Positions 35,155-63,754 of a stretch of DNA of 64,000 nt are shown here, piece by piece. Source of the stretch: a virus. The stretch spans positions 1 to 64,000 of IMG/VR virus record IMGVR_UViG_3300033145_002663; one strand, given 5' to 3'. The translations under genes were made by a program, and so were the position numbers. The notes under the pieces are model-generated. The model saw only the letters and a list, made by a program, of their open reading frames with translations. It was not told where the DNA came from and searched no databases. Numbering within the stretch: position 1 is the stretch's first letter; every line of letters begins with the position of its first letter.

Positions 35155-35526
35155 TTACGCTATGTCGACTTTCTTTATATACTGTTCCATCTTTTTAAAT
35201 GTAAATTTAATCAGCTCGGGATCTTTAATTTTAGCTGCCAGATTTATAGATTCCAGATAGTGTCCTAATTTTGGAAAATATTCAAGCGCCTCTTTGCTGA
35301 CGAGAAAACCGTCGGTGTTATCGTCGTTATGATCCAAATCAATCCCCAGTTCAGCGCTGATATCTTTTAATTCCTGTAATGTCGGTTTTTGAATCCCCGC
35401 CTCGATTTTGCGCATCTTTACGTGCGGTGCGTTCAGTTTCGGGAAAAGTTTTTCCCCAAGCATTTTCTGTGTCCAACCTTTCCGGCTCCTGTGCAGCGCG
35501 ATGAGCTCTCCCTGTTTTAATTTCAT
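35155..35526 (-). CDS. XRE-family HTH repressor (CI-like)
   Basis: IALHRSRKGWTQKMLGEKL...KIEAGIQKPTLQELKDISAELG; divergent from a Cro-like gene. Confidence 0.85.
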   Translation of the reverse strand: MKLKQGELIALHRSRKGWTQKMLGEKLFPKLNAPHVKMRKIEAGIQKPTLQELKDISAELGIDLDHNDDNTDGFLVSKEALEYFPKLGHYLESINLAAKIKDPELIKFTFKKMEQYIKKVDIA

Positions 35527-35552
35527 GTTACCCCCCACTTTTTGTTTAAAAA

Positions 35553-35570
35553 TTACTTGACTAAAGTTCA
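35553..35570 (+). promoter_or_regulatory. Promoter/operator motif copy 2 (TTACTTGACTAAAGTTCA)
   Basis: In the repressor/cro intergenic region; 26/29 match to copy 1 when extended. Confidence 0.7.
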
Positions 35571-35620
35571 AAATTAAACTAAAAAAGTTTAAAAATAAAC
35601 TTTTACGGAGACTGAATTAA

Positions 35621-53261: not shown

Positions 53262-54398
53262 TTAATTCACCCCCATATGCACCAGCTCGCCCCAGGGCGG
53301 ATCACTGCCCCGGCCGCTTGGGGTTTTCACCCACAGCACGGGATAATCCGGCGGGCTTGCCGGGTAATCGCTGCTTTCCAGGTCTGTCAGATAAATCGCA
53401 AATCCCGGAGTGCCGTCATAGTTTCTTTCGATCCACTCAAATGCCGGTGAAAACCGGGTACCGCCGCCCCCGCTAAATTCAAGGGACAATATCGGCAGGT
53501 CCTCACGGGTGTAAATCGCGGGTGTTCCCTGCACCTTAGTATCAACATAAACCACGGTCAGCTCGGTGGGATACGTTTCAAGGATACCGTTAAACTCCCC
53601 GAGAAACTGCTGCCGGTCCTTTAATGTGGAACCTGAAGCGTCCATGATCAGGACACCGGGATTAAGCTCCCTGCAAAACATGCTCGGCAGATAAATACCC
53701 ATGTGAATAAAGCGGCGGTTCGGCGGGATCCACTGATAGTCGTTCCGGGTTATCTTCTCGATGAACCTCATGAGCACGACTCGCCAGTCCACCTTGGGCT
53801 TTAAGATGTTATCCACCATCTCTTTAATACCACCCAGCATCTTACCCTCGGCACTCGCCTGGTTCTTGGCCTGTCTTACGGTCAGCTCCCAGTCGACCTC
53901 GTGCTCTCGTTTCTGGGATTCGGTGGCGGGCTGGTTTTCGTCTTCCGGGTTCGGCATGTCTCGAACTTCGCCAAAGCCGCCACCTTCAGGCGGATCGGGA
54001 ATTAATGAATAGATCTCCTCTGCACACATCCCGTAAAACGCCGGGTCGTCCAAGCCGCCTTCCGGCAACCTAAATCCGGCATCCGTTACCAGCGGATTAA
54101 TCGCATAATCGGCAGCCCTGTTAAATTTCTCATGTTTCCGATCACCCCTTCTGGTATGATGCATGCAAGCACAGTGCATGCATTCGTGACAGACAACACC
54201 CCGGATCTTACCGATGGTAAGCGAGTGCACGAACTCAGGGTTGTATCCAAGGTGTATGCCGTCGGTCCACATCGTTTTACAGCCGTAGTCTTCCTTTAAA
54301 ATGAGCTTTAGGGACAGCGTACCGAAGAACGGTGCTTCAGCTATCAGCCCGGATCGTGCCCGCACCATCTGGAAGCGGGCCTCTTTGTCTTTGATCAT
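53262..54398 (-). CDS. Metallopeptidase plus vWA-like domain protein (DUF2201-type)
   Basis: TMWTDG, HECMH (HExxH), AADYAIN, DASGS (MIDAS-like), GGGGTRF, YLTD. Confidence 0.88.
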   Translation of the reverse strand: MIKDKEARFQMVRARSGLIAEAPFFGTLSLKLILKEDYGCKTMWTDGIHLGYNPEFVHSLTIGKIRGVVCHECMHCACMHHTRRGDRKHEKFNRAADYAINPLVTDAGFRLPEGGLDDPAFYGMCAEEIYSLIPDPPEGGGFGEVRDMPNPEDENQPATESQKREHEVDWELTVRQAKNQASAEGKMLGGIKEMVDNILKPKVDWRVVLMRFIEKITRNDYQWIPPNRRFIHMGIYLPSMFCRELNPGVLIMDASGSTLKDRQQFLGEFNGILETYPTELTVVYVDTKVQGTPAIYTREDLPILSLEFSGGGGTRFSPAFEWIERNYDGTPGFAIYLTDLESSDYPASPPDYPVLWVKTPSGRGSDPPWGELVHMGVN

Positions 54399-54409
54399 TT
54401 TTCACCTCC

Positions 54410-54898
54410 TCACTCCCACATATGCCGGAAATCGTTGTTTGGCATGATCCAGAAATACTGATTCAAAATAATTCGGCATAGTTTGTGGAGATCGTCGAAA
54501 TATAACTTATCTTTATCAAAATAGGGTTCCCATGAACCCGACTCAATCACTTTGTGCATATCGTCACACTCATATGGGTAGTTTGGATCAAAACCGTACC
54601 TTAGAAAATGATCAACCTCCGCTTCGCATCCGTATTGAGTCAGAGTATTATCCAATCTTTGAAAGCATGTTTCGCAATACGGGGTTCCATCACCATCTGT
54701 ACCCCAACCACCATCAACATCATACTCGCCATCCGGATCTGATCTTCGGAGATCCTCCACTTTTTTATGTGCGCAATCATAACAAAAACTTAATCCTTCA
54801 TCGTATCCGCTGATCCAGTGTTCATTTTCTTCCGTGACGAGCATGGCGCCGGCCAGAAAAACTTCTTCCAGTCTCATGCGTTCAGTTTTTGTTAACAT
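54410..54898 (-). CDS. Hypothetical protein with CxxC pairs
   Basis: CYDC...CETC. Confidence 0.6.
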   Translation of the reverse strand: MLTKTERMRLEEVFLAGAMLVTEENEHWISGYDEGLSFCYDCAHKKVEDLRRSDPDGEYDVDGGWGTDGDGTPYCETCFQRLDNTLTQYGCEAEVDHFLRYGFDPNYPYECDDMHKVIESGSWEPYFDKDKLYFDDLHKLCRIILNQYFWIMPNNDFRHMWE

Positions 54899-54905
54899 AC
54901 CTTTG

Positions 54906-55754
54906 TTAACATACCACCCCCGCGTACGGCGCCATCTTCTTCATGATCTCAGCTGTGGCGTCCTTTAAAGTGTTTCGAACTTCCTCGTTCCCCCTGATCT
55001 CCTTGCCGGAAAACCGGCACAGTTTTTGCTCGATCTCTTTGGCCATTTCGTCCAGCTTGGGATCGTTGCCGATGTTCAGCTTGGGCAGCACCGGGAGCAG
55101 GTCTTTAATATTCTGCACGATGGAGTTGTGCGGTTTCTTGGACTCCGCCAAACGGTCCGCCATTTTCTTGATCGGATCGTACAGCTTTTTCCATACACCG
55201 GCCATTGCCCCGGCAAACCGGGCAGTGATCTGTTTTTCCAGGTTGTCGTTCAGATAGTCCAGTTCGTCCTGGGACAGCTTCACGCGCCAGTCCCCCACCG
55301 AAGGGATAGGAACAATGTTCAGTTTAGTTCCGAACAGGTCACGAATTTTCGAGACAGCCGGGTAATCCCCAGCCTTCCACATCGTTCCGAGTAATTCTTT
55401 CTCGGCATGAACATAACCGGAATAGTTAATACAGAACTGATCATAGCGATCCTCGAACGTTGAGATTCGCTGGCGCTGACCGTCCATGTATTCCTGGTGC
55501 AGCTCGATGGCCAGAATGCGGTTAACAGGATCCCACGGCAGGGTCATGAGTTTATGAAAGTTCTTAATATCGGCGGCCGCGGACTCGTACCCGCTGGTAC
55601 AATCCTTGGCCATCGTATATTTCGTGAATGATCCTGCCTTTCTCCTGCATCCCTCATTAATCTTGTTTGTTACTTCCTTGTCCACCCGGTTCGTGCGGTA
55701 CATGTTCACCTCACATGACACCAGGACGGCTCTTGAGCTTAGGTCTAACAACAT
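54906..55754 (-). CDS. Helical protein associated with the AAA/vWA locus (DUF3150-like)
   Basis: LSSRAVLV...TLPW...DYP...LPKLNIGNDP pattern; position between AAA and vWA genes. Confidence 0.6.
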   Translation of the reverse strand: MLLDLSSRAVLVSCEVNMYRTNRVDKEVTNKINEGCRRKAGSFTKYTMAKDCTSGYESAAADIKNFHKLMTLPWDPVNRILAIELHQEYMDGQRQRISTFEDRYDQFCINYSGYVHAEKELLGTMWKAGDYPAVSKIRDLFGTKLNIVPIPSVGDWRVKLSQDELDYLNDNLEKQITARFAGAMAGVWKKLYDPIKKMADRLAESKKPHNSIVQNIKDLLPVLPKLNIGNDPKLDEMAKEIEQKLCRFSGKEIRGNEEVRNTLKDATAEIMKKMAPYAGVVC

Positions 55755-56088
55755 TGGTTTTCTCCTTTCCAAAAACTTTTAAGATGCGAATACATTCGGG
55801 ATGATTTTTATATCCCAAAGCATTTGACACTTCGCGCCAGGTTTTCCCACCACCTCGCATACGTTTAATAATTTTCACCTGCTTCATGCGCTGTTCAATG
55901 GTAAACCGAGGCTGTCTGCCAGGTTTTCGGTTTAAATTTTTAATAATTTCTTGTCTTTTTTTACGCAATTGACATAATTGCATCCGAACGGATCGTTTTT
56001 GTTTAAATAATTCGATTTCCTTTTGATTGATTTTATCATCAATCTCGACCAAACGAGCTATTTCTTCATCAATGAGTTTTGTTGGCAT
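55711..56088 (-). CDS. Basic coiled-coil plus HTH protein
   Basis: GKTWREVSNALG. Confidence 0.5.
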   Translation of the reverse strand: MPTKLIDEEIARLVEIDDKINQKEIELFKQKRSVRMQLCQLRKKRQEIIKNLNRKPGRQPRFTIEQRMKQVKIIKRMRGGGKTWREVSNALGYKNHPECIRILKVFGKEKTNVVRPKLKSRPGVM

Positions 56089-56246
56089 TAATCGCCTCCG
56101 TCGAAATCTAATGAATCTGCATCAGAACCGACGACTTCAAATTGATCGCTACCACACTTGGGGCACCTTGCTCCGTGTTCGGCCCAATCAATGTCGTTAT
56201 CGTATGGGCTTGCTGTTTTCCATTGATCATAATTTGTAAACGGCAT
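56088..56246 (-). CDS. Small hypothetical protein (52 aa)
   Basis: MPFTNYDQWKTASPYD...CPKCGS; SD GGAGG; absent from the ORF track. Confidence 0.5.
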   Translation of the reverse strand: MPFTNYDQWKTASPYDNDIDWAEHGARCPKCGSDQFEVVGSDADSLDFDGGD

Positions 56247-56441
56247 CTATTCCTCCTTAAACACGCAATTTTGACAACGCGTCTTATCTCTACAAAATTT
56301 ACATACTTTATTGCTGTCTATGGCCTCGCAAGTATGATCGATAATCACTCCTATCGCTTTTGTCATAGGCACATCCAAAGCCCATGCAATACGCCTCAAT
56401 GCGCAACTACGCTGATAGTTTAATTCTGGCGTATATGCCAT
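56247..56441 (-). CDS. Small RHH-like, Cys-rich protein
   Basis: MAYTPEL...LRRIAWALDVPMTK...VCKFCRDKTRCQNC. Confidence 0.65.
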   Translation of the reverse strand: MAYTPELNYQRSCALRRIAWALDVPMTKAIGVIIDHTCEAIDSNKVCKFCRDKTRCQNCVFKEE

Positions 56442-56454
56442 CTTGCCTCACCCC

Positions 56455-57519
56455 CTACTGCAAATACTGCCCGTGCTCCGGGAACCACTGCGTGGTGTAC
56501 GCTTTGTGCTTCATGAGCATGGGGTCTTTGCGGACGATGTCTTTCATTAATTTCATGGACCACTCTTTTTCCACCCGCATAGAATATGTTACGATGTTCT
56601 TAAAGTTGTCCTGATCGGCCATGGATGCCAGCGCGCAGGTCAGCGAGTACATTATGTCAGGCTTACCTGTGGGAACACCGGCGGTCTTGGGATGCGCCAG
56701 GATATTGTCCATGTCCGGCAGCTCGTTATAAACTTTCTCGAATGTCATGAACTCACCGGTGGGCCCCTTGCCGACCGTGCCGCTTAACAGCTCGAACTTT
56801 AAATCCTGCGGCGGGTGCTGCTTTAAAATGTCGGATGTAAATTCCCATGTCCTAGGCGAGGCGAACGCTTTTTCGTTTTTCTTTTCCGGGTTCTGAGAAT
56901 CGTTCATCGGGTCAAAGTCCAACAGCAGCTGCGGAAAATTATGAATGAACGCAATCACCATTGGATAAATATCAGCGCGGTACGCCCATGTAATCCAATC
57001 TTCCTGGCTTACATCGTAGTTAATATGAATGAGCCGGTTCGCCATGGGGGTGCTCATCCGGTGGGTGAACGCTCTGTCAATTTCCCGGTTGCCGGCGGCT
57101 ACGATCCACCAGCCAGGCGGCAGCTCGTACTCCCCGATTTTTCGATCAAGGAATAACTGAAGCAGGGCGTTCTGTGTGAGCGGCGGTGCTGAGGGCAGCT
57201 CATCAAAAAAGATGATGCCCTTGCCTTCCGTCGGCAGGAATGCCGGCGGACACCAGTGCGCTTTCTGGTCGCCGTTGATTGATGGCAACCCACGAATATC
57301 AACAGGATCGAGCAGCAATGCCCGAATATCCCTGAAGCCGTACAGTGCCTTTGCCTTTTGTTTGATTAATTTGCAATCACCGCCCTCGGTGGCGTTAAGC
57401 CAGTCCACCAGTTGTTGGATGATACATGACTTTCCAACTCCCGGCGGGCCCCATAAAATGCAGGGCAGGTCGGCGTTTTTAAGAATCTTTAATGATTCAA
57501 ATACTTGGGTTGGCCTCAT
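56455..57519 (-). CDS. MoxR-like AAA+ ATPase
   Basis: WGPPGVGKS, DIRGLP, IIFFDE, AAGNR, MANR, SPRTWE. Confidence 0.9.
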   Translation of the reverse strand: MRPTQVFESLKILKNADLPCILWGPPGVGKSCIIQQLVDWLNATEGGDCKLIKQKAKALYGFRDIRALLLDPVDIRGLPSINGDQKAHWCPPAFLPTEGKGIIFFDELPSAPPLTQNALLQLFLDRKIGEYELPPGWWIVAAGNREIDRAFTHRMSTPMANRLIHINYDVSQEDWITWAYRADIYPMVIAFIHNFPQLLLDFDPMNDSQNPEKKNEKAFASPRTWEFTSDILKQHPPQDLKFELLSGTVGKGPTGEFMTFEKVYNELPDMDNILAHPKTAGVPTGKPDIMYSLTCALASMADQDNFKNIVTYSMRVEKEWSMKLMKDIVRKDPMLMKHKAYTTQWFPEHGQYLQ

Positions 57520-57667
57520 TGCTTTCCTCCTTTCTGTTACATCCAAATTTCTCCTGCAGGGAGTACAGACATTTGTTGCACTTTGAGCACCTTTCCCGCC
57601 TGCAATTTAACTGCTCATCAGTTTCAAGCTCTCCCTTGCACCTTTTACACTTATAAATATAAACCAA
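57497..57667 (-). CDS. Small zinc-ribbon protein
   Basis: TTG start after GGAGG; YIYKCKRC...CSKC; absent from the ORF track. Confidence 0.5.
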   Translation of the reverse strand: MVYIYKCKRCKGELETDEQLNCRRERCSKCNKCLYSLQEKFGCNRKEESNEANPSI

Positions 57668-57680
57668 TAGTTTCACCTCC

Positions 57681-58445
57681 TTAAATTGGTATTGGATTAA
57701 CCTTCATGGTCTCTAAATTTACAAAGACACCATGATATTCGATTCGGGTTTCTCGAATTAGTTTCCAGAGTATGTCCATGCCGAGCATAGCCAGCGTGGA
57801 ATTGATAAACAGATCCTGCCTGCCTAAAGCCTCGGCAAGGCTGCATGACGGCCCCTGATCTTCCTCGGTTGCCCGTTCAAACTCGTCATAGAACAATTCC
57901 AGCACGTGAGGGAGCTTTTGGGATTGACCATCGGGTTGCTTTATTTCGTCCCATGAGCCAAGCACGGCCTGACCGGTCTTCTGGGTGTTGCCAAAATCCA
58001 TCCAGTACATTCCTTCGTTATACTCCTGCCCCCCTCGAACATCCTCGTCCCAAAGTTCCGCCAATGCGATGCGTGCTTCAACAGTATCGACACAGGATAT
58101 AATTATATTGGTGGGATCAATAACTTCGACGGTATCCCTGCAGTACGGGATGGCATTAGCTTCCCATGCCAGTCCGAAGAACCGGTTTACCCTTGTAATC
58201 AGAGCGACGGCTTTGTTCTGCTCGATTTCGGCGGGTGAGAACAATTGTCGCCCGAAGTTGGACTCGCTCACGATGTCCGGATCGTATGCCTGAACATAGA
58301 ACCCAGGGTGCCCCAGGCCCTGCAGGGCGAAGTCCATGCGGGCCAGGCAGGTTAGCACCTGCGATCCGGTACCGCCGCACCCTACCAGCGCGACGGTGAT
58401 CGGGTGTGTGGGGTCTAATAAGTATTTGTCAGCGTAGTGAGTCAT
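57681..58445 (-). CDS. PRTRC-system ThiF/E1-like activating enzyme
   Basis: LVGCGGTGSQ, DPDIVSESNFGRQ, SCVD, PSCSLAEALGRQDLFINS. Confidence 0.92.
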   Translation of the reverse strand: MTHYADKYLLDPTHPITVALVGCGGTGSQVLTCLARMDFALQGLGHPGFYVQAYDPDIVSESNFGRQLFSPAEIEQNKAVALITRVNRFFGLAWEANAIPYCRDTVEVIDPTNIIISCVDTVEARIALAELWDEDVRGGQEYNEGMYWMDFGNTQKTGQAVLGSWDEIKQPDGQSQKLPHVLELFYDEFERATEEDQGPSCSLAEALGRQDLFINSTLAMLGMDILWKLIRETRIEYHGVFVNLETMKVNPIPI

Positions 58446-59128
58446 AATAAATCCCCCAGTACCTTTGCTTTTTTCTTGGAAACCATATGTTTTTTCATGG
58501 TTGTTTTAAGGGGGAACCGGCCTCCTTTAGTTATAAGTTTCGTCCAAATAGCATTCAGGTTCTTTCTTCCCTTGCAGGGATTGGCTACAAAATGAGAAAA
58601 TTTGGAGTTGAAGAAAGCCGATTCCCAGCCACGGATAATCTGATCAATGGTTTTTCCTTGTATTCTTTTAGCACTCCCCATACACATATTCCCGTCCTCG
58701 TACCTGTTGTGAAACGGGGCATAGTACAGCTCGGTTTCGAGGGTAGGGCGGTCTTTGCCGACGTAGGCAAACACGGACAGGGTGCTTCCCGTAACCATAA
58801 AGATCAAACCGGGGCACCATGCCAGGCCGTCAGGAATGTTCAAGGCGTCCGAAAAATATAGCTGGCGAATCATCGGCGGGTAATACCAGAGGGTTTTATG
58901 AACATCATGTGTTAATAAATTTACAGGGAACAACCCGGATTTATCCGGCTGATTTTTTTGCTGAAACAGGGTGATCAAACCTTTCAGGTTTTTCCATGTC
59001 AGAGGCTTCCCGCCCAGCAGGGTGCCGTCCCGTGTAATATCATGCAGTTCCGCATAGTAATCTGTATTGGTGTCCGCCTGATATATCATCAGGGATTTTC
59101 TTAGGTGAAAGTTAGAGTAATCCATCAA
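58442..59128 (-). CDS. PRTRC-system protein B (prokaryotic E2 family D)
   Basis: WYYPP..RQLYF, PGLIF, LYYAPFHN..DGNMCMGS, WESAFFNSKFSH. Confidence 0.88.
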   Translation of the reverse strand: MMDYSNFHLRKSLMIYQADTNTDYYAELHDITRDGTLLGGKPLTWKNLKGLITLFQQKNQPDKSGLFPVNLLTHDVHKTLWYYPPMIRQLYFSDALNIPDGLAWCPGLIFMVTGSTLSVFAYVGKDRPTLETELYYAPFHNRYEDGNMCMGSAKRIQGKTIDQIIRGWESAFFNSKFSHFVANPCKGRKNLNAIWTKLITKGGRFPLKTTMKKHMVSKKKAKVLGDLL

Positions 59129-60228
59129 GCCTCCATTAATTTTTGAGAAACACCTGTCCCCATTTCAAAAAATTTCATAAGGTTATAAGGCCATTGAGGA
59201 ACTTTCAGCCTGTTAATTTCCAGGCAATCCTTGCCGGTTAAGTAAAAGTTGTGCACAAACGGAATCATGCCGACACTATTGCAATATTCTTCAGAATCTC
59301 TTAAAACTTCCTCGCCCATATAATCATCCAATGACCATACGAATCGCATATAATTATATGGGTTCGCCCCATCAATGCCTCGTTCAAATTCATAGTCGAG
59401 AAAATCATTATAGTCCAAACCGCTTCTGATTAATTCATACCCCTTAAAGCACCAGCTAAAAATCTCTACTTCAAGATCGTTTTCAGGGTTGAATTGAGCG
59501 AGCATTTGCGCAAAATCATCTATGGAAAAATTCAGCCGATTAATACAATTTTCATAGAAACCGGGTTCACCTTTCATGTATTTATGAATCATGTCTGAAT
59601 AATACGAAATTAAACCTTCATCCGGATCGTCCTCATATTTTTCTTCCCCGATGCGCTCATCAAAATAATCAAGCATACGCTCATCCATATCCATGTGCGG
59701 CATATTGCAATGCTTGTTTAACAAGCTCATCATGGATAGAATTAAATTATAAATCTTACGATTTTGATTCTTTAGTTTTGGCAGGTATTCCAGGGAGAGC
59801 ATATAAATATCATACTCACAGACATTAGAGTATTTATGGTAAACTCGAATCAAATAGTTTGGTGACTCGATTATTTCCCATTGAAAATCATTCGGGATGA
59901 GTCCGTGCAGTTTTTCAAGGATCGTGCCCAGCACTTTCCAGGTTGGTGTGTTTTTATCTAAGTCCGGTATGGAAATTTCATAGTTTTTTAAGATGTTTCG
60001 TATTTCCCTTATGGCTTGAAGTTGTTTTCTTTCTGAATCAAACATTCCGTAGTGCAATTTCGCACACACCTCCAGCTCGTGCTTTACGGCAGGCACACCA
60101 TGCAGGGCGGGGCAGGTAATCGCTCGGGCCGCTCTATGCCGGTCCGGTATGCCCTGTCGGAGTCCACCAGCAGGCGCCCGACACCGTTGTGCAGCATTTT
60201 GAGCTGTTTCTCCTTTTTTTTCCTGCAT
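59125..60228 (-). CDS. PRTRC-associated protein (protein F position)
   Basis: Directly upstream of protein B; acidic helical C-terminal half. Confidence 0.5.
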   Translation of the reverse strand: MQEKKGETAQNAAQRCRAPAGGLRQGIPDRHRAARAITCPALHGVPAVKHELEVCAKLHYGMFDSERKQLQAIREIRNILKNYEISIPDLDKNTPTWKVLGTILEKLHGLIPNDFQWEIIESPNYLIRVYHKYSNVCEYDIYMLSLEYLPKLKNQNRKIYNLILSMMSLLNKHCNMPHMDMDERMLDYFDERIGEEKYEDDPDEGLISYYSDMIHKYMKGEPGFYENCINRLNFSIDDFAQMLAQFNPENDLEVEIFSWCFKGYELIRSGLDYNDFLDYEFERGIDGANPYNYMRFVWSLDDYMGEEVLRDSEEYCNSVGMIPFVHNFYLTGKDCLEINRLKVPQWPYNLMKFFEMGTGVSQKLMEA

Positions 60229-60256
60229 TTTTTCACCTTCAAATATTCTTCGAGTG

Positions 60257-60553
60257 TCATTGTCTGCTACTCCAATCGGCATACTCATCAACGTCATCGT
60301 TCTGTTTGGTTTTAAAGCAGTACTCCGATAAAAAATGGAGGCCTTCACCCACCGGGCGACCGCACCCGCAGGAGCAGAGCTTTATTTTCTTGGGATCCTT
60401 TTTTTCGTCCTTGTGCGCTCTGTAATAATCCCTGCATCTTTTACGGTGCATATCTTTGTTGCACTCCGGACAATATTTTCGACGGGCAGCAAAGTGGTTT
60501 GCCACCTTAAATATCTTGCCGCACTTGGGGTTTTGGCATATTACGGTGAGCAT
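60257..60553 (-). CDS. Zinc-finger protein
   Basis: CQNPKC...YCPEC...CSCGCG. Confidence 0.55.
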   Translation of the reverse strand: MLTVICQNPKCGKIFKVANHFAARRKYCPECNKDMHRKRCRDYYRAHKDEKKDPKKIKLCSCGCGRPVGEGLHFLSEYCFKTKQNDDVDEYADWSSRQ

Positions 60554-60732
60554 GATAACTCCTGGCACTCATATTTCTTGAGCATTTTTATGGCGTTCCG
60601 GTAATTTTTAAACCTTAAGAAGTGACGCAGTTTTTTTAGCTGAGCCTGGGGAAAGCCAAAATAGCAATACTGACGCGATTCCCAGGCCACCTCCAGCTCG
60701 CCGTATGAGTTGTAATTAATGATTTCTATCAT
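60541..60732 (-). CDS. Hypothetical protein
   Basis: SD GAGGTG; 63 aa. Confidence 0.45.
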   Translation of the reverse strand: MIEIINYNSYGELEVAWESRQYCYFGFPQAQLKKLRHFLRFKNYRNAIKMLKKYECQELSCSP

Positions 60733-60839
60733 CTTTCACCACCTCATGAATTTTCCATGCGATATCCATGAATTCAGCAAGGCGTTCACCCTGCTGATCC
60801 ATGGATAAAAATTTAAAGGGCGGTATGTCTTTGATTTGA

Positions 60840-61046
60840 TTATAGAGCTTTTGCTCCATCTCTTGCCGGGTCATTCTCCTTTATTACCTCCTTAATAATA
60901 TTAGCTAATGCTACTATAGCAGCACCCTGATTCCCAAAGTATTCAGCTACAGTTTTTCCATTGAAGGGTTGACCATCAAAGTGCTTTGCATCATTTGATG
61001 TATTAGTAATTATTAAATCTAAAACCCTAATCTTCCTCTCGTTCAT
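60840..61046 (-). CDS. Hypothetical protein
   Basis: Operon ORF. Confidence 0.5.
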   Translation of the reverse strand: MNERKIRVLDLIITNTSNDAKHFDGQPFNGKTVAEYFGNQGAAIVALANIIKEVIKENDPARDGAKAL

Positions 61047-61228
61047 TCAGTCACACCTCCTCCATACCAGGCATGGACCGTGCCGGTTTCTTCGTCCACC
61101 AGAAGATCCAATGCCACGAAATTAAAGTGGCGAAACATTGCCAGTGCTTCGCCACTTAAACCTAATTTTTCGCCCATATCTTCCATGTACTCCCGATCCA
61201 GTTCAGCTTGAACGGATACTTTTCTCAT
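61043..61228 (-). CDS. Hypothetical protein
   Basis: Operon ORF. Confidence 0.5.
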   Translation of the reverse strand: MRKVSVQAELDREYMEDMGEKLGLSGEALAMFRHFNFVALDLLVDEETGTVHAWYGGGVTE

Positions 61229-61230
61229 AC

Positions 61231-61449
61231 CTATCCTTTCATCCCCACGGATGTGGAAAACTTGTACTCGGCTACACCGTCCTTGATTTCCGGGCCGGTA
61301 ACCGTGGCAGTGGTTAGTTCGGGGTAGGTGTTGCTGTAAAACTGCAACACGTCGTGCGGGGACATCTCAGGGGCGGGATCGGTGAGCGGTTCGCCCTTAT
61401 GAAGAAACACCCGTTTTATATTCGTTACGTCTAATGCCATTTGAGCCAC
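61231..61449 (-). CDS. PRTRC-system protein C (ubiquitin-like modifier candidate)
   Basis: RVF...LTDPAPEMSPHDVLQFYSNTYPELTTATVTGP...FSTSVGMKG; ends in Gly. Confidence 0.9.
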   Translation of the reverse strand: MAQMALDVTNIKRVFLHKGEPLTDPAPEMSPHDVLQFYSNTYPELTTATVTGPEIKDGVAEYKFSTSVGMKG

Positions 61450-61455
61450 CCCCTT

Positions 61456-61833
61456 TTATGTAAACAAACCTGGTTGTTGACTGACAGCACCAGGTGTCTT
61501 AACCGGCGCGGCCTTCTTTTTCACGGTCTTGTCGGTCTTTTTCACCACGGCTCGCTTTTGTTTCTCGACCAGATCGTTATACTCGTCTATGGAACTCATT
61601 AAACCATGGGTCGATCGGCCGGCTCTTGTCAGTTCATTAATGAACCCCTCGTCCAGTTCTTTGGGAGTTCCGGATATAACCAGCGGTTTAACCTCAATCT
61701 TATCCGCTTTCTCATCCGTCTGTTTGGGCAGCACGCTCACGGCGATTTTCCCATGAACAGGCTTGCTGATAACCATTGTTATTGTTAACTTACCCGATTC
61801 TATGACCGGGTAAATTCGTTCAAAAAACTCCAT
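61456..61833 (-). CDS. PRTRC-system protein E
   Basis: MEFF...VSVLPK...PLVISGTPKELDEGF...GLF. Confidence 0.88.
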   Translation of the reverse strand: MEFFERIYPVIESGKLTITMVISKPVHGKIAVSVLPKQTDEKADKIEVKPLVISGTPKELDEGFINELTRAGRSTHGLMSSIDEYNDLVEKQKRAVVKKTDKTVKKKAAPVKTPGAVSQQPGLFT

Positions 61834-61881
61834 GCGTTTCCTCCTTTTGGGCTAATAAAATACCTCTTTTATACTCCAAAG

Positions 61882-61899
61882 TGAACATAAGTCAAGTAA
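61882..61899 (-). promoter_or_regulatory. Promoter/operator motif copy 4, driving the PRTRC/accessory operon
   Basis: TTACTTGACTTATGTTCA, with TATAAA 16 nt after TTGACT. Confidence 0.7.
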
Positions 61900-61941
61900 A
61901 AAATGACTTTCAAGGAATATAAAAGAGGGGTTCGCTGATAT

Positions 61942-63246
61942 CTAACTGTTTATTCCCATGATAGCGGCTTTTAAATTTCCGCCTTCGAAAAACACGGGTT
62001 TCATCGAATCATCGGACAGCTTCAGGGTAACTTTTTTACCCACGTGCTTCAGGGCGTCCGCGACATAGCCCGTATTCAACCGGACGGTCATTTCGGGATC
62101 AACCTTGCCTTTGAGAAACGGTACGTCAAACCTGCGGTATTCTCCCTTGTCGTCATTGGCAGCCTCGACGTTCATCACGCCGTTGAGTGTGAAATCCGCG
62201 ACCTCGGAGATCAGCCCGACCTGTTTTACGACGTCTTTGAACACGTCGTTGTCAATCTCGATGCTGTGAACGGTTTTCGTACCGTTCATAAATCCCATGT
62301 AATCCGGGAAATTAACGTCTTCATCCTTGGTCAACACGGTCAGCTTGCCGTAGGTAAATTGAGCCCGGCTTCCGTTCTTGTCGATCTTCATGGTAACATC
62401 TTTGTCCTTGGCAACTTTCGCCAAAGTTCCCAGAGCACCCGCCGGCAGCGTGATGTTTTGCTTCAGGTTGATCTGATGCTTCAGCATGTGCAAACGGTTA
62501 CCGTTGGTGGACACCAGATTTTTCTCCTTGGCATCGAACATAACAACCGTTTGATGCGGCGAAGCGTCATCTTTGTAATTGCAGGCATCCGTCAAGCTTC
62601 TCAGGTCATCACCCTTTATGGTGGCAACCTGAGTCCCGGTAAATTCTCGAGCATCAGGGAACTCTTTGATGTCGGTCAGCGGGATGCGCTGAAAATGCTC
62701 CCCGATTGCCAGGGCCGTTGCGTTGACACCCTCGGTCAAAAAGTCCGATTTTTGCTCGAACTCCTCAACATGAAGATCAATAACATCCCCGGAATTCTCG
62801 GAATTCACGATCTTAAGCAGGTGGTCCGGGTCTACCAGGAACCGTTCGTCAACCTCGGTCTCGGGCGGCGGCAGTTTCTCCTCGGTCTGGGCGGCGGCTT
62901 CGCTGGCATTAAATATCGATTCAACCATATCAGCTTTCTTGGCCTTCTCGCCGAGATCGATGCCGGCGTACTCGCACAGATCGACAAGCTGCCCGACCTT
63001 CAATGATTTCAGGTCTGTGGTAAGGTCTTCGTCCGGATGCACCACGGCGGGTTTTTCGCCAACGATTTTCTGCTTGTAATCAGTCAGCGAAATCGCTACC
63101 TCACCCCTGGTCTGCATATCCGTTGCGATGATCTTCTGGCTGGGGCCATCAATCAAAACTTTTCCCAGCTCCGGATAGGACTTACCATTTTTAAACCCTT
63201 TGACCATTTTCAGGCCCTCTACAAGGTCTTTCTTTGCTACTTTCAT
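61942..63246 (-). CDS. DNA polymerase III beta-clamp-like protein with an inserted helical domain
   Basis: IIATD, EFPD, LVSTNGNRLH, NFPDY, LNTGYVADALK, MKPVFF...AAIMGI match DnaN motifs; insertion LKSLKVGQLVDLCEYAGI...KKADMVESI. Confidence 0.8.
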   Translation of the reverse strand: MKVAKKDLVEGLKMVKGFKNGKSYPELGKVLIDGPSQKIIATDMQTRGEVAISLTDYKQKIVGEKPAVVHPDEDLTTDLKSLKVGQLVDLCEYAGIDLGEKAKKADMVESIFNASEAAAQTEEKLPPPETEVDERFLVDPDHLLKIVNSENSGDVIDLHVEEFEQKSDFLTEGVNATALAIGEHFQRIPLTDIKEFPDAREFTGTQVATIKGDDLRSLTDACNYKDDASPHQTVVMFDAKEKNLVSTNGNRLHMLKHQINLKQNITLPAGALGTLAKVAKDKDVTMKIDKNGSRAQFTYGKLTVLTKDEDVNFPDYMGFMNGTKTVHSIEIDNDVFKDVVKQVGLISEVADFTLNGVMNVEAANDDKGEYRRFDVPFLKGKVDPEMTVRLNTGYVADALKHVGKKVTLKLSDDSMKPVFFEGGNLKAAIMGINS

Positions 63247-63344
63247 ATGCACCTCCTTTGAAATAAATTTACCGAACCATACAGCCCGGCCGGATCTTAT
63301 GAATCCGTGAGAACCGTCGAATTTTTTCAACAGCTCTCATGGAG

Positions 63345-63698
63345 TCACACTCGGGTTAAATCTTTATACTTCGTTTTTAATCGAGCTATCGTTCCTCGAT
63401 CTGCCATACTGTAAAACGCCCTATCGCCGACGATCAGGTGTTCGTGTATTGTGACACCAACCGATTGCAGGGCGATCATCAGTTGAAAGGTGATAGAAAG
63501 ATCTTCAGGCGACGGATCGGAACTTCCTGAAGGATGGTTGTGGCAAAAAATTACCGCTGCGGCTTGTTCCTGGGCAGTCAAAGGTTTCATAATATTATAT
63601 AACTCCTCAGAGTTATTTACCTTTTGCCCTTTAATATTTTCCTTAACCATTGTTGCAAATTTACCGGATATCAAATCCTGATAGAACTTACAATTCAT
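63345..63698 (-). CDS. RadC-like JAB/MPN protein with an apparent internal deletion
   Basis: AAAVIFCHNHPSGSSDPSPEDLSIT...HEHLIVG..FYSMADRG. Confidence 0.8.
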   Translation of the reverse strand: MNCKFYQDLISGKFATMVKENIKGQKVNNSEELYNIMKPLTAQEQAAAVIFCHNHPSGSSDPSPEDLSITFQLMIALQSVGVTIHEHLIVGDRAFYSMADRGTIARLKTKYKDLTRV

Positions 63699-63754
63699 GC
63701 TACCACCTCCTTTTTCGCTTGACATTATCAATCAAAAATATTAGATTTTTCTCT

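Follow-up and report, generated by a model that had tools for sequence, protein, structure and literature searches.

A predicted protease-less ubiquitin-like conjugation cassette of the PRTRC type beside the sliding clamp gene of a tailed phage

The virus record IMGVR_UViG_3300033145_002663 of IMG/VR (92,469 bp), whose first 64 kb constitute the whole stretch of DNA analysed here (the window), carries on its minus strand a cassette predicted from its sequence to be an intact ubiquitin-like conjugation set of the ParB-Related, ThiF-Related Cassette type (PRTRC; NCBIfam TIGR03734-03742; operon type 6d of Iyer, Burroughs and Aravind 2006, PMC1779556) that is phage-borne and lacks a protease. An initial annotation, made from the letters alone, had described such a system in a tailed phage, without ParB and next to a sliding clamp and a JAB protein, and had suggested that it tags proteins early in infection, against host defences or on the clamp of the phage itself. 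The observation was confirmed by the present analysis, and the interpretation was partly supported. To our knowledge, PRTRC was predicted in 2006 and has been annotated in thousands of genomes, its function has never been tested, and bacterial conjugation of ubiquitin-like proteins has so far been shown for host defence systems alone (Bil, CBASS Cap2).

The components were identified with NCBIfam and Pfam hidden Markov models (HMMs) together with PHROGs, and all of the genes named in the initial annotation were recovered on the minus strand. The PRTRC ThiF-family E1-like adenylating enzyme (57681–58445) is a single-domain protein of 254 aa that scored 266.2 bits against TIGR03736 (cut-off 144.75), with weak matches to the ThiF and MoeB models as well. 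Its gene overlaps that of the E2-like protein B by a few nucleotides (58442–58445), leaving no space for another gene between them. Protein B (58442–59128) belongs to the Prok-E2_D family (PF14460, 116.3 bits, cut-off 25; E = 1.6e-33). Protein C (61231–61449), the ubiquitin-like protein (Ubl) of the Prok_Ub family, exceeded the cut-offs of both TIGR03738 (84.9 vs 45.95 bits) and PF14454 (86.4 vs 25 bits), as did protein E (61456–61833) for TIGR03741 (63 vs 37.95 bits) and PF19556 (63.4 vs 26 bits). PHROGs held no family for ThiF, B, C, E or the protein in the F position, which is referred to below as F'.

The residues expected of an active conjugation pathway are strongly conserved. In ThiF, the GxGxxG motif and residues Arg66, Gln67, Lys78, Cys118, Asp120 and Cys201, the last lying in a PSCS motif, are each at least 95% conserved across 145 sequences. 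Cys149 of protein B, located in the motif GNMCMG, is at least 95% conserved, and a downstream histidine, His179, is 85–95% conserved (143 sequences). In protein C, Gly69, Lys71 and Gly72 are at least 95% conserved (119 sequences for Gly72), and the protein terminates in VGMKG followed immediately by the stop codon, leaving Gly72 free; the three motifs quoted at the outset, VGMKG-stop, GNMCMG and PSCS, are all present. The conserved glycine, the E1 residues, Cys201, Cys149 and His179 agree with the published description of type 6d (PMC1779556). The set of components and the conservation of their catalytic residues support the view that the E1/E2/Ubl set is intact.

The cassette belongs to a tailed phage and not to a co-assembled integrative and conjugative element (ICE). 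CheckV assigned a completeness of 100% to the 92,469-bp record. Genes for a tape measure, tail proteins, helicases and a primase-polymerase are located on one flank of the cassette, and genes for the terminase, head protease and major capsid protein on the other, beyond the window. The GC content is even along the whole record, and strong Shine-Dalgarno sites precede 37% of the open reading frames (ORFs) genome-wide, compared with 2% expected by chance, and are also found before genes within the cassette. Furthermore, the order B ... ThiF ... AAA-ATPase is repeated in two independent metagenome contigs at 86–89% identity. The phage genes on both flanks, the even GC content, the Shine-Dalgarno sites inside the cassette and the repeated ThiF-AAA junction make a co-assembled ICE, a possibility raised together with the initial annotation, very unlikely. 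A megablast search of the region against GenBank phages gave no match, and a search for a close cultured relative of the capsid protein found none. The host probably uses Shine-Dalgarno sites and so would not be a member of the Bacteroidota. Strong sites of this kind are not typical of Bacteroidota, but it is in that phylum that ThiF has its closest named relatives; this suggests that the cassette moved between phyla or that the host is non-Bacteroidota.

Related loci were then collected from viral and bacterial sequences. Single-protein scans yielded one viral locus and none in genomes, and alignment-based scans were needed for relatives. A ThiF-alignment scan of IMG/VR, the kind of viral survey proposed with the initial annotation, placed the cassette in 208 viral contigs, 80 of which were inspected; 50 related viral records were examined whole. 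The gene order in the 80 contigs is almost always E, C, a gene of ~380 aa, B and ThiF, with B touching ThiF and without protein A, and the same five-gene core was found in at least 380 species genomes, nearly all of them Bacteroidota. The ThiF of the window is 49–56% identical to its nearest named (Bacteroidota) relatives; relatives of 60–88% identity exist, and the context was seen for two short metagenome contigs. By sequence, the window cassette is a divergent member of a widespread, undescribed branch that lacks protein A. The viral assignment of this branch is supported by the 50 whole records, none of which contains the Bacteroidota conjugation gene traG, while 28 have a match to the terminase large subunit TerL (phrog_2) and 25 reach a completeness of 90% or more. 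As a phage marker, the HK97 capsid Pfam model performed poorly, matching 3 of the 50 records versus 28 for TerL phrog_2. Many of the related viral records are classed as proviruses.

Phage-borne PRTRC as such is not a new observation. Among GenBank phages, Ralstonia phage Dina, in which PRTRC is annotated by RefSeq, and Burkholderia phage BgVeeders33 contain the full E-C-F-B-A-ThiF set, and the unannotated record of Ralstonia phage YO105_4 contains a match to PRTRC ThiF. The cassette has also been reported in a prophage of B. gladioli, where it was called a partitioning cassette and its function was stated to be unstudied (PMC13366799), and a preprint (10.64898/2026.10.01.756045) reports that protein B of a P. 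vulgatus prophage recurs as a hotspot of mutation.

Neither ParB nor protein A is encoded in the window. Protein A (TIGR03735; DUF2016 plus Prok-JAB) had no match anywhere in the 92-kb genome, in which the Prok-JAB model matched a RadC-like protein alone (14.9 bits). The absence noted initially thus holds for the whole genome, but it is typical of the Bacteroidota-type branch and not special to this phage. The terminus of the Ubl offers an explanation. In loci without protein A, it reads xKG-stop in 77 of 79 viral and in all 72 of 72 bacterial cases. Dina and BgVeeders33, which have protein A, encode a Ubl that continues past the same xKG for ~60 extra residues, and protein A of Dina consists of DUF2016 and Prok-JAB. 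The simplest reading is that protein A trims a Ubl precursor and that the A-less branch can do without it, its tag being produced in mature form; the phage would accordingly lack protein A because its Ubl is translated in its final form.

The RadC-like JAB protein (63345–63731, minus strand; at most 128 aa) is the sole JAB in the genome and retains an intact JAMM motif (HNHPSGx4SxxD). Its match to PF04002 (E = 1.7e-19) covers profile positions 60–120 of 121, so that the C-terminal half of the domain alone is matched, and of roughly 160 related loci ~5 have a RadC close to the cassette. Because of the half-domain match and this rarity, it was not counted as a component; its earlier description as a neighbour of the system does not extend to a conserved one, and its candidacy as a substitute for protein A was rejected as a conserved feature. 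As for ParB, a generic protein of this type (HTH_ParB, 313 aa) is encoded on the minus strand at genome positions 65470–66411, ~1.5 kb past the window edge. It is not the PRTRC ParB, given its score of 16 bits against TIGR03734 (a family of about 555 aa; cut-off 278.6), so the phrase "without ParB" applies to the window and to the PRTRC type but not to the genome as a whole. GTGAGTAAGAAC and AACCATTGGAAAT are repeated several times, in both orientations, between the ParB-like and RadC genes (genome ~64640–64920); these repeats could be parS-like sites or iterons.

The gene directly upstream of E encodes a DnaN-like phage sliding clamp (61942–63330, minus strand; 462 aa with a TTG start) that matched TIGR00663 (E = 2.9e-13) and phrog_947 (E = 3.4e-29); the DnaN match is weak, and ~95 N-terminal residues lie outside the family match. 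Among the viral loci, 25 of 73 have dnaN no more than 400 bp upstream of E; among the bacterial loci, 8 of 68 do. Any dnaN was present in 18 of the 50 whole viral records, and each was placed by hand from the ThiF-scan coordinates. It abuts the cassette in 15 of these 18 (directly upstream of E in 14, between C and F' in 1), lies within 4 kb downstream of ThiF in 2 and is distant in 1. One complete provirus has dnaN inside the cassette, between C and F' (locus L060, 6326–7405).

Protein E consists of a small α-β3-α N-terminal domain and a Lys-rich disordered linker, and ends in QQPGLFT. Its AlphaFold2 model has a pLDDT of ~80 for residues 1–72, followed by a disordered tail, and the matches of the head domain to double-stranded RNA-binding or signal recognition particle 9/14 (SRP9/14)-like domains were weak and non-significant (E ≥ 0.013). 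The family shares a short motif, x-[STGN]-[LMI]-F, in which the [LMI]-F column is at least 90% conserved and which occurs in the variants QTSLF, QNSLF, GNMF and QPGLF. We take these variants to resemble β-clamp-binding peptides, for which Dalrymple et al. in 2001 reportedly described a motif space including QL[SD]LF and QADMF. The protein E of the window ends right at the LF motif, without an acidic or Q/P-rich tail. This ending is associated with the clamp gene: dnaN is adjacent for 14 of 15 E proteins ending at the LF motif, compared with 19 of 126 others (Fisher p = 1.5e-9; p ~1e-3 once related loci were collapsed by ThiF identity clusters). More generally, the E tail covaries with the upstream gene (loci L007-L086 and L087-L166). 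Q/P-rich tails ending in ...YQTV occur with topoisomerase III (37/45), many viral E proteins have acidic tails, and tails ending at the LF motif pair with dnaN. The conserved dnaN-E synteny and the clamp-binding-like motif in E give comparative support to the link with the clamp that was drawn initially. We propose that the C-terminal peptide of E may dock on the clamp encoded directly upstream.

The F position is occupied by a protein of 387–407 aa without a known fold (59125–60348, minus strand), for which 77 distant homologues of ~380 aa were found. An HMM built from these homologues matched 64 of 78 viral F-position ORFs, BLAST clustering grouped the F-position ORFs of 76 loci, and in Bacteroidota nearly every locus has a member of the family at this position. 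TIGR03742 (PRTRC_F, related to alpha-hel2) did not match the F' of the window or 50 members of the family, no NCBIfam family was found for F' among these 50 members, and a protein atlas search returned no result for F'. An hhalign comparison of F' with PRTRC_F gave a probability of 0.1%, with a small template of 3 sequences, one of which is the L006 protein recruited by iteration. The AlphaFold2 model is mostly helical (pLDDT 82 overall; residues 80–387 confident) and had no fold match in the PDB (Foldseek E > 0.08; VIA-align best Z 4.9). An F-position protein is therefore present, as annotated initially, but it is not detectably homologous to PRTRC_F and appears to be a different helical protein in the same place. 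F' evolves very fast, with a mean column identity of 21% and almost nothing invariant, which would suit a role in target recognition or as an E3-like factor.

The clamp gene and E are separated by 108 bp, within which lies a promoter-like site (TTGACT, 16-nt spacer, TATAAA; 61868–61895, minus strand) placed within an 18-nt motif, TTACTTGACTTATGTTCA / TTACTTGACTWAWDTTCA (combined span 61868–61899). This motif has exactly four copies in the 92-kb genome (34694–34711, 35553–35570, 35873–35890 and 61882–61899), whereas shuffled sequences give none, and the three other copies lie in a divergent switch region (34.7–35.9 kb) beside an HTH_3 regulator gene (35155–35571). The motif is probably a promoter or operator common to the switch region and E, and separate regulation from a shared motif would fit early or switch-controlled expression. 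The promoter motif reported initially is thus present and shared with the switch region, but a generic sigma-70 scan found no more sites than in shuffled sequence.

Five small ORFs lie between C and F' on the minus strand (60257–61228), at 61043–61228, 60840–61046, 60716–60874, 60541–60732 and 60257–60553, the last encoding a Cys-rich, Zn-ribbon-like protein. Their starts and stops are coupled and Shine-Dalgarno sites are present; none matched a Pfam family, and they are not found in other loci, where F' directly follows C. A relative of 88% identity has two small ORFs of 65 and 104 aa between B and ThiF (L173, 298–840), and the lineage of the window seems, from these sequences, to accumulate small inserts within the cassette. 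Downstream of ThiF, on the same strand, are a gene for a MoxR-like AAA_5 ATPase (56455–57546; phrog_1297) and one for a DUF2201 metallopeptidase plus VWA protein (53262–54398) that PHROGs labels an HNH endonuclease, with unknown ORFs between them (53262–57546). The ThiF-to-AAA junction is kept in close relatives, whose contigs end before the VWA gene; the AAA and DUF2201 pair was rejected as a part of the cassette, being absent from other PRTRC loci. Past the window, on the plus strand, the genome encodes an ECF-type (extracytoplasmic function) sigma factor with an extension of ~230 aa without known function (67977–69314). At related loci, diversity-generating retroelements (DGRs) stand beside the dnaN-PRTRC module (L012, 3980–5900; L017, 15660–17680; L027, 1040–4810; L068, 1000–3010; L085, 2740–4770). 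Each comprises a reverse transcriptase with template/variable repeats, and every mismatch between the repeats falls on an A of the template. Protein B, the DGR target that the preprint reports for the P. vulgatus prophage, was rejected as their target in the loci examined, where small genes located upstream of the reverse transcriptase contain the variable repeats.

We favour an explanation in which the cassette encodes a functional, phage-borne E1-E2-Ubl conjugation system of the PRTRC type that works without a protease and uses E as a clamp-docking adaptor, and we consider it about evenly poised between right and wrong. In this scheme, ThiF would adenylate the free C-terminal Gly72 of protein C, and the Ubl would be handed to protein B, perhaps by way of Cys201 of ThiF, to form a thioester with Cys149. 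Protein B would then join the Ubl to target lysines, with specificity or an E3-like function likely supplied by F'. No peptidase would be needed for trimming or removal because the Ubl is translated in mature form. Protein E would act as an adaptor composed of a folded head, the disordered Lys-rich linker and the conserved ...S/G-L-F C-terminal peptide. By docking on the clamp encoded upstream, this peptide would place tagging at replicating phage or host DNA. The unit from E to ThiF would be expressed under its own promoter/operator motif shared with the genetic switch of the phage.

Several observations weigh against this explanation. The clamp of the window is divergent and its start codon uncertain, and protein B scored slightly below the cut-off of TIGR03737 (121.4 vs 131.45 bits; E = 3.5e-35). 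The clamp adjoins the cassette in just about a third of viral loci, and topoisomerase III lies upstream in 40 of 68 bacterial (Bacteroidota ICE-type) loci, in which E keeps SLF. The SLF motif thus also occurs in ICE-type loci where E has a long tail and dnaN is not adjacent, and it may bind the host clamp or another partner. Some of the synteny could be incidental, as replication modules are where both dnaN and the cassette are located. In addition, a literature search found no biochemical test of any PRTRC system, and no solved structure was found for any PRTRC component.

A more specific form of the favoured explanation, which we put forward tentatively and regard as rather unlikely, is that PRTRC is a clamp-directed Ubl system. 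Here E would dock on the β clamp and bring charged B together with F' to DNA-loaded clamps, and the Ubl would be placed on the clamp, on the E linker or on clamp-bound polymerases or repair proteins. If true, this would be a bacterial and viral counterpart of the ubiquitylation or SUMOylation of PCNA through which mobile elements take over or protect the replication of incoming DNA, the phages bringing their own clamp and ICEs pairing the cassette with topoisomerase III.

The strongest competing account, though a minority possibility, is counter-defence or host takeover apart from the clamp, in which the Ubl tags host immune or repair factors, F' or B recognises the target, and the position of dnaN reflects early or replication gene placement. 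The very fast evolution of F' (mean column identity 21%), the mutational hotspot in protein B of the P. vulgatus prophage (10.64898/2026.10.01.756045), the DGRs beside the module in several loci, the role of cellular E1/E2/Ubl systems (Bil, CBASS Cap2) in phage-host conflict and the absence of an adjacent dnaN from two thirds of viral loci are all consistent with it. However, this account leaves unexplained why dnaN, where present, nearly always adjoins the cassette and why the SLF peptide of E is conserved, and no known anti-defence gene is linked to the cassette.

Defence by the prophage itself, or superinfection exclusion, in which a lysogen would tag the proteins of incoming phages or mobile elements as Bil does, appears improbable. 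It gains from the many proviruses among the related records, from the fast F' and adjacent DGRs, which fit an arms race, and from the conjugation of Ubl to a phage tail protein by Bil (Hor et al.). The cassette, however, is located in the replication arm, not in a typical position for a lysogeny moron, and has its promoter motif in common with the switch region. It is also found on ICEs and plasmids behind topoisomerase III, near establishment-type genes, and its lack of a JAB and its 254-aa single-domain E1 are unlike Bil.

Two further accounts have only a slight chance of being correct. In the first, ThiF activates protein C for thiocarboxylate formation, as a sulfur carrier or other non-conjugating adenylation system like ThiS/MoaD. 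ThiF enzymes and Gly-ending β-grasp proteins act in this way in thiamine and molybdopterin synthesis, and the ThiF of the window has weak matches to the ThiF and MoeB models; but the loci always include a dedicated E2-like protein in which Cys and His are conserved, ~160 loci contain no rhodanese, cysteine desulfurase or biosynthetic gene, and the context is DNA replication on mobile elements. In the second, at a similarly low level of credence, the set is a partition or maintenance cassette, as its name and some papers assume. A ParB-like gene and nearby repeats do lie upstream in the same arm, and PMC13366799 speaks of a partitioning cassette. That ParB is generic, with 16 bits against the 279-bit PRTRC ParB cut-off, and there is no ParB among the 40 most recurrent neighbour-gene clusters, no ParB HMM having been run on bacterial loci. 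Nothing in the E1/E2/Ubl set suggests DNA segregation, and PMC13366799 itself calls the function unstudied. Finally, an assembly artefact that joined an ICE fragment into a phage contig is scarcely credible: the nearest named ThiF relatives are Bacteroidota at 49–56% identity while the phage uses strong Shine-Dalgarno sites, but GC is uniform, the cassette itself has Shine-Dalgarno sites and is flanked by phage genes on both sides, and the same junction recurs in independent contigs and the same module in dozens of other terminase-bearing viral contigs.

These findings indicate that protease-less PRTRC is a regular part of phage replication modules, in which the absence of the protease may be explained by a ready-made tag and the cassette is physically coupled to the phage clamp, with a clamp-docking-like peptide. 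Tagging of the clamp or replisome, if true, would give PCNA modification its first parallel in viruses or prokaryotes and would reveal a new means by which mobile DNA controls replication or repair.

The comparison with eukaryotic PCNA ubiquitylation and SUMOylation is one of analogy. In both cases a Ubl system is genetically coupled to a clamp and an accessory protein has a clamp-docking-like peptide; no homology is implied, and the clamp of the window is a bacterial-type β clamp and a putative target at most. The bacterial systems Bil (BilABCD), Bub and CBASS Cap2/Cap3 share the E1 + E2 + Ubl logic, with the choice of targets probably made by the E2 and not by an E3. They differ from the window cassette, which has a 254-aa single-domain E1, no dedicated JAB and a Prok-E2_D E2 and is encoded by a phage; judged by the Bil architecture (PMC11601596), its single ThiF domain of 254 aa, its Prok-E2_D protein and the lack of a dedicated JAB place it outside Bil.

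Ralstonia phage Dina (NC_055026), BgVeeders33 and the B. gladioli prophage AB2 are likewise tailed phages with a PRTRC cassette. Unlike that of the window, their cassettes are of the full E-C-F-B-A-ThiF form with a JAB protein, a canonical PRTRC_F and a C-terminally extended Ubl; no adjacent dnaN is annotated, and their ThiF is ~40% identical to that of the window. With PRTRC/type 6d as originally defined, the window shares the ThiF, B, C and E families, the order E-C-(helical protein)-B-ThiF, residence on mobile DNA and a protein B that lacks the classical E2 His and has a His after the Cys. It differs in having no protein A, PRTRC ParB or PRTRC_F homologue, in a Ubl that is made mature, in the five extra small ORFs inside the cassette and in the phage dnaN directly upstream. 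The remaining comparison is with the A-less modules of Bacteroidota, which are ICE-like behind topoisomerase III or carried by the phages and prophages of IMG/VR. The window differs from them in its ThiF (49–56% identical), its probably Shine-Dalgarno-using host, an E that stops after LF without an acidic or Q/P-rich tail, and the inserted small ORFs, whereas it has in common with them the E-C-F'-B-ThiF core with B abutting ThiF, the F' family and a Ubl ending in xKG-stop.

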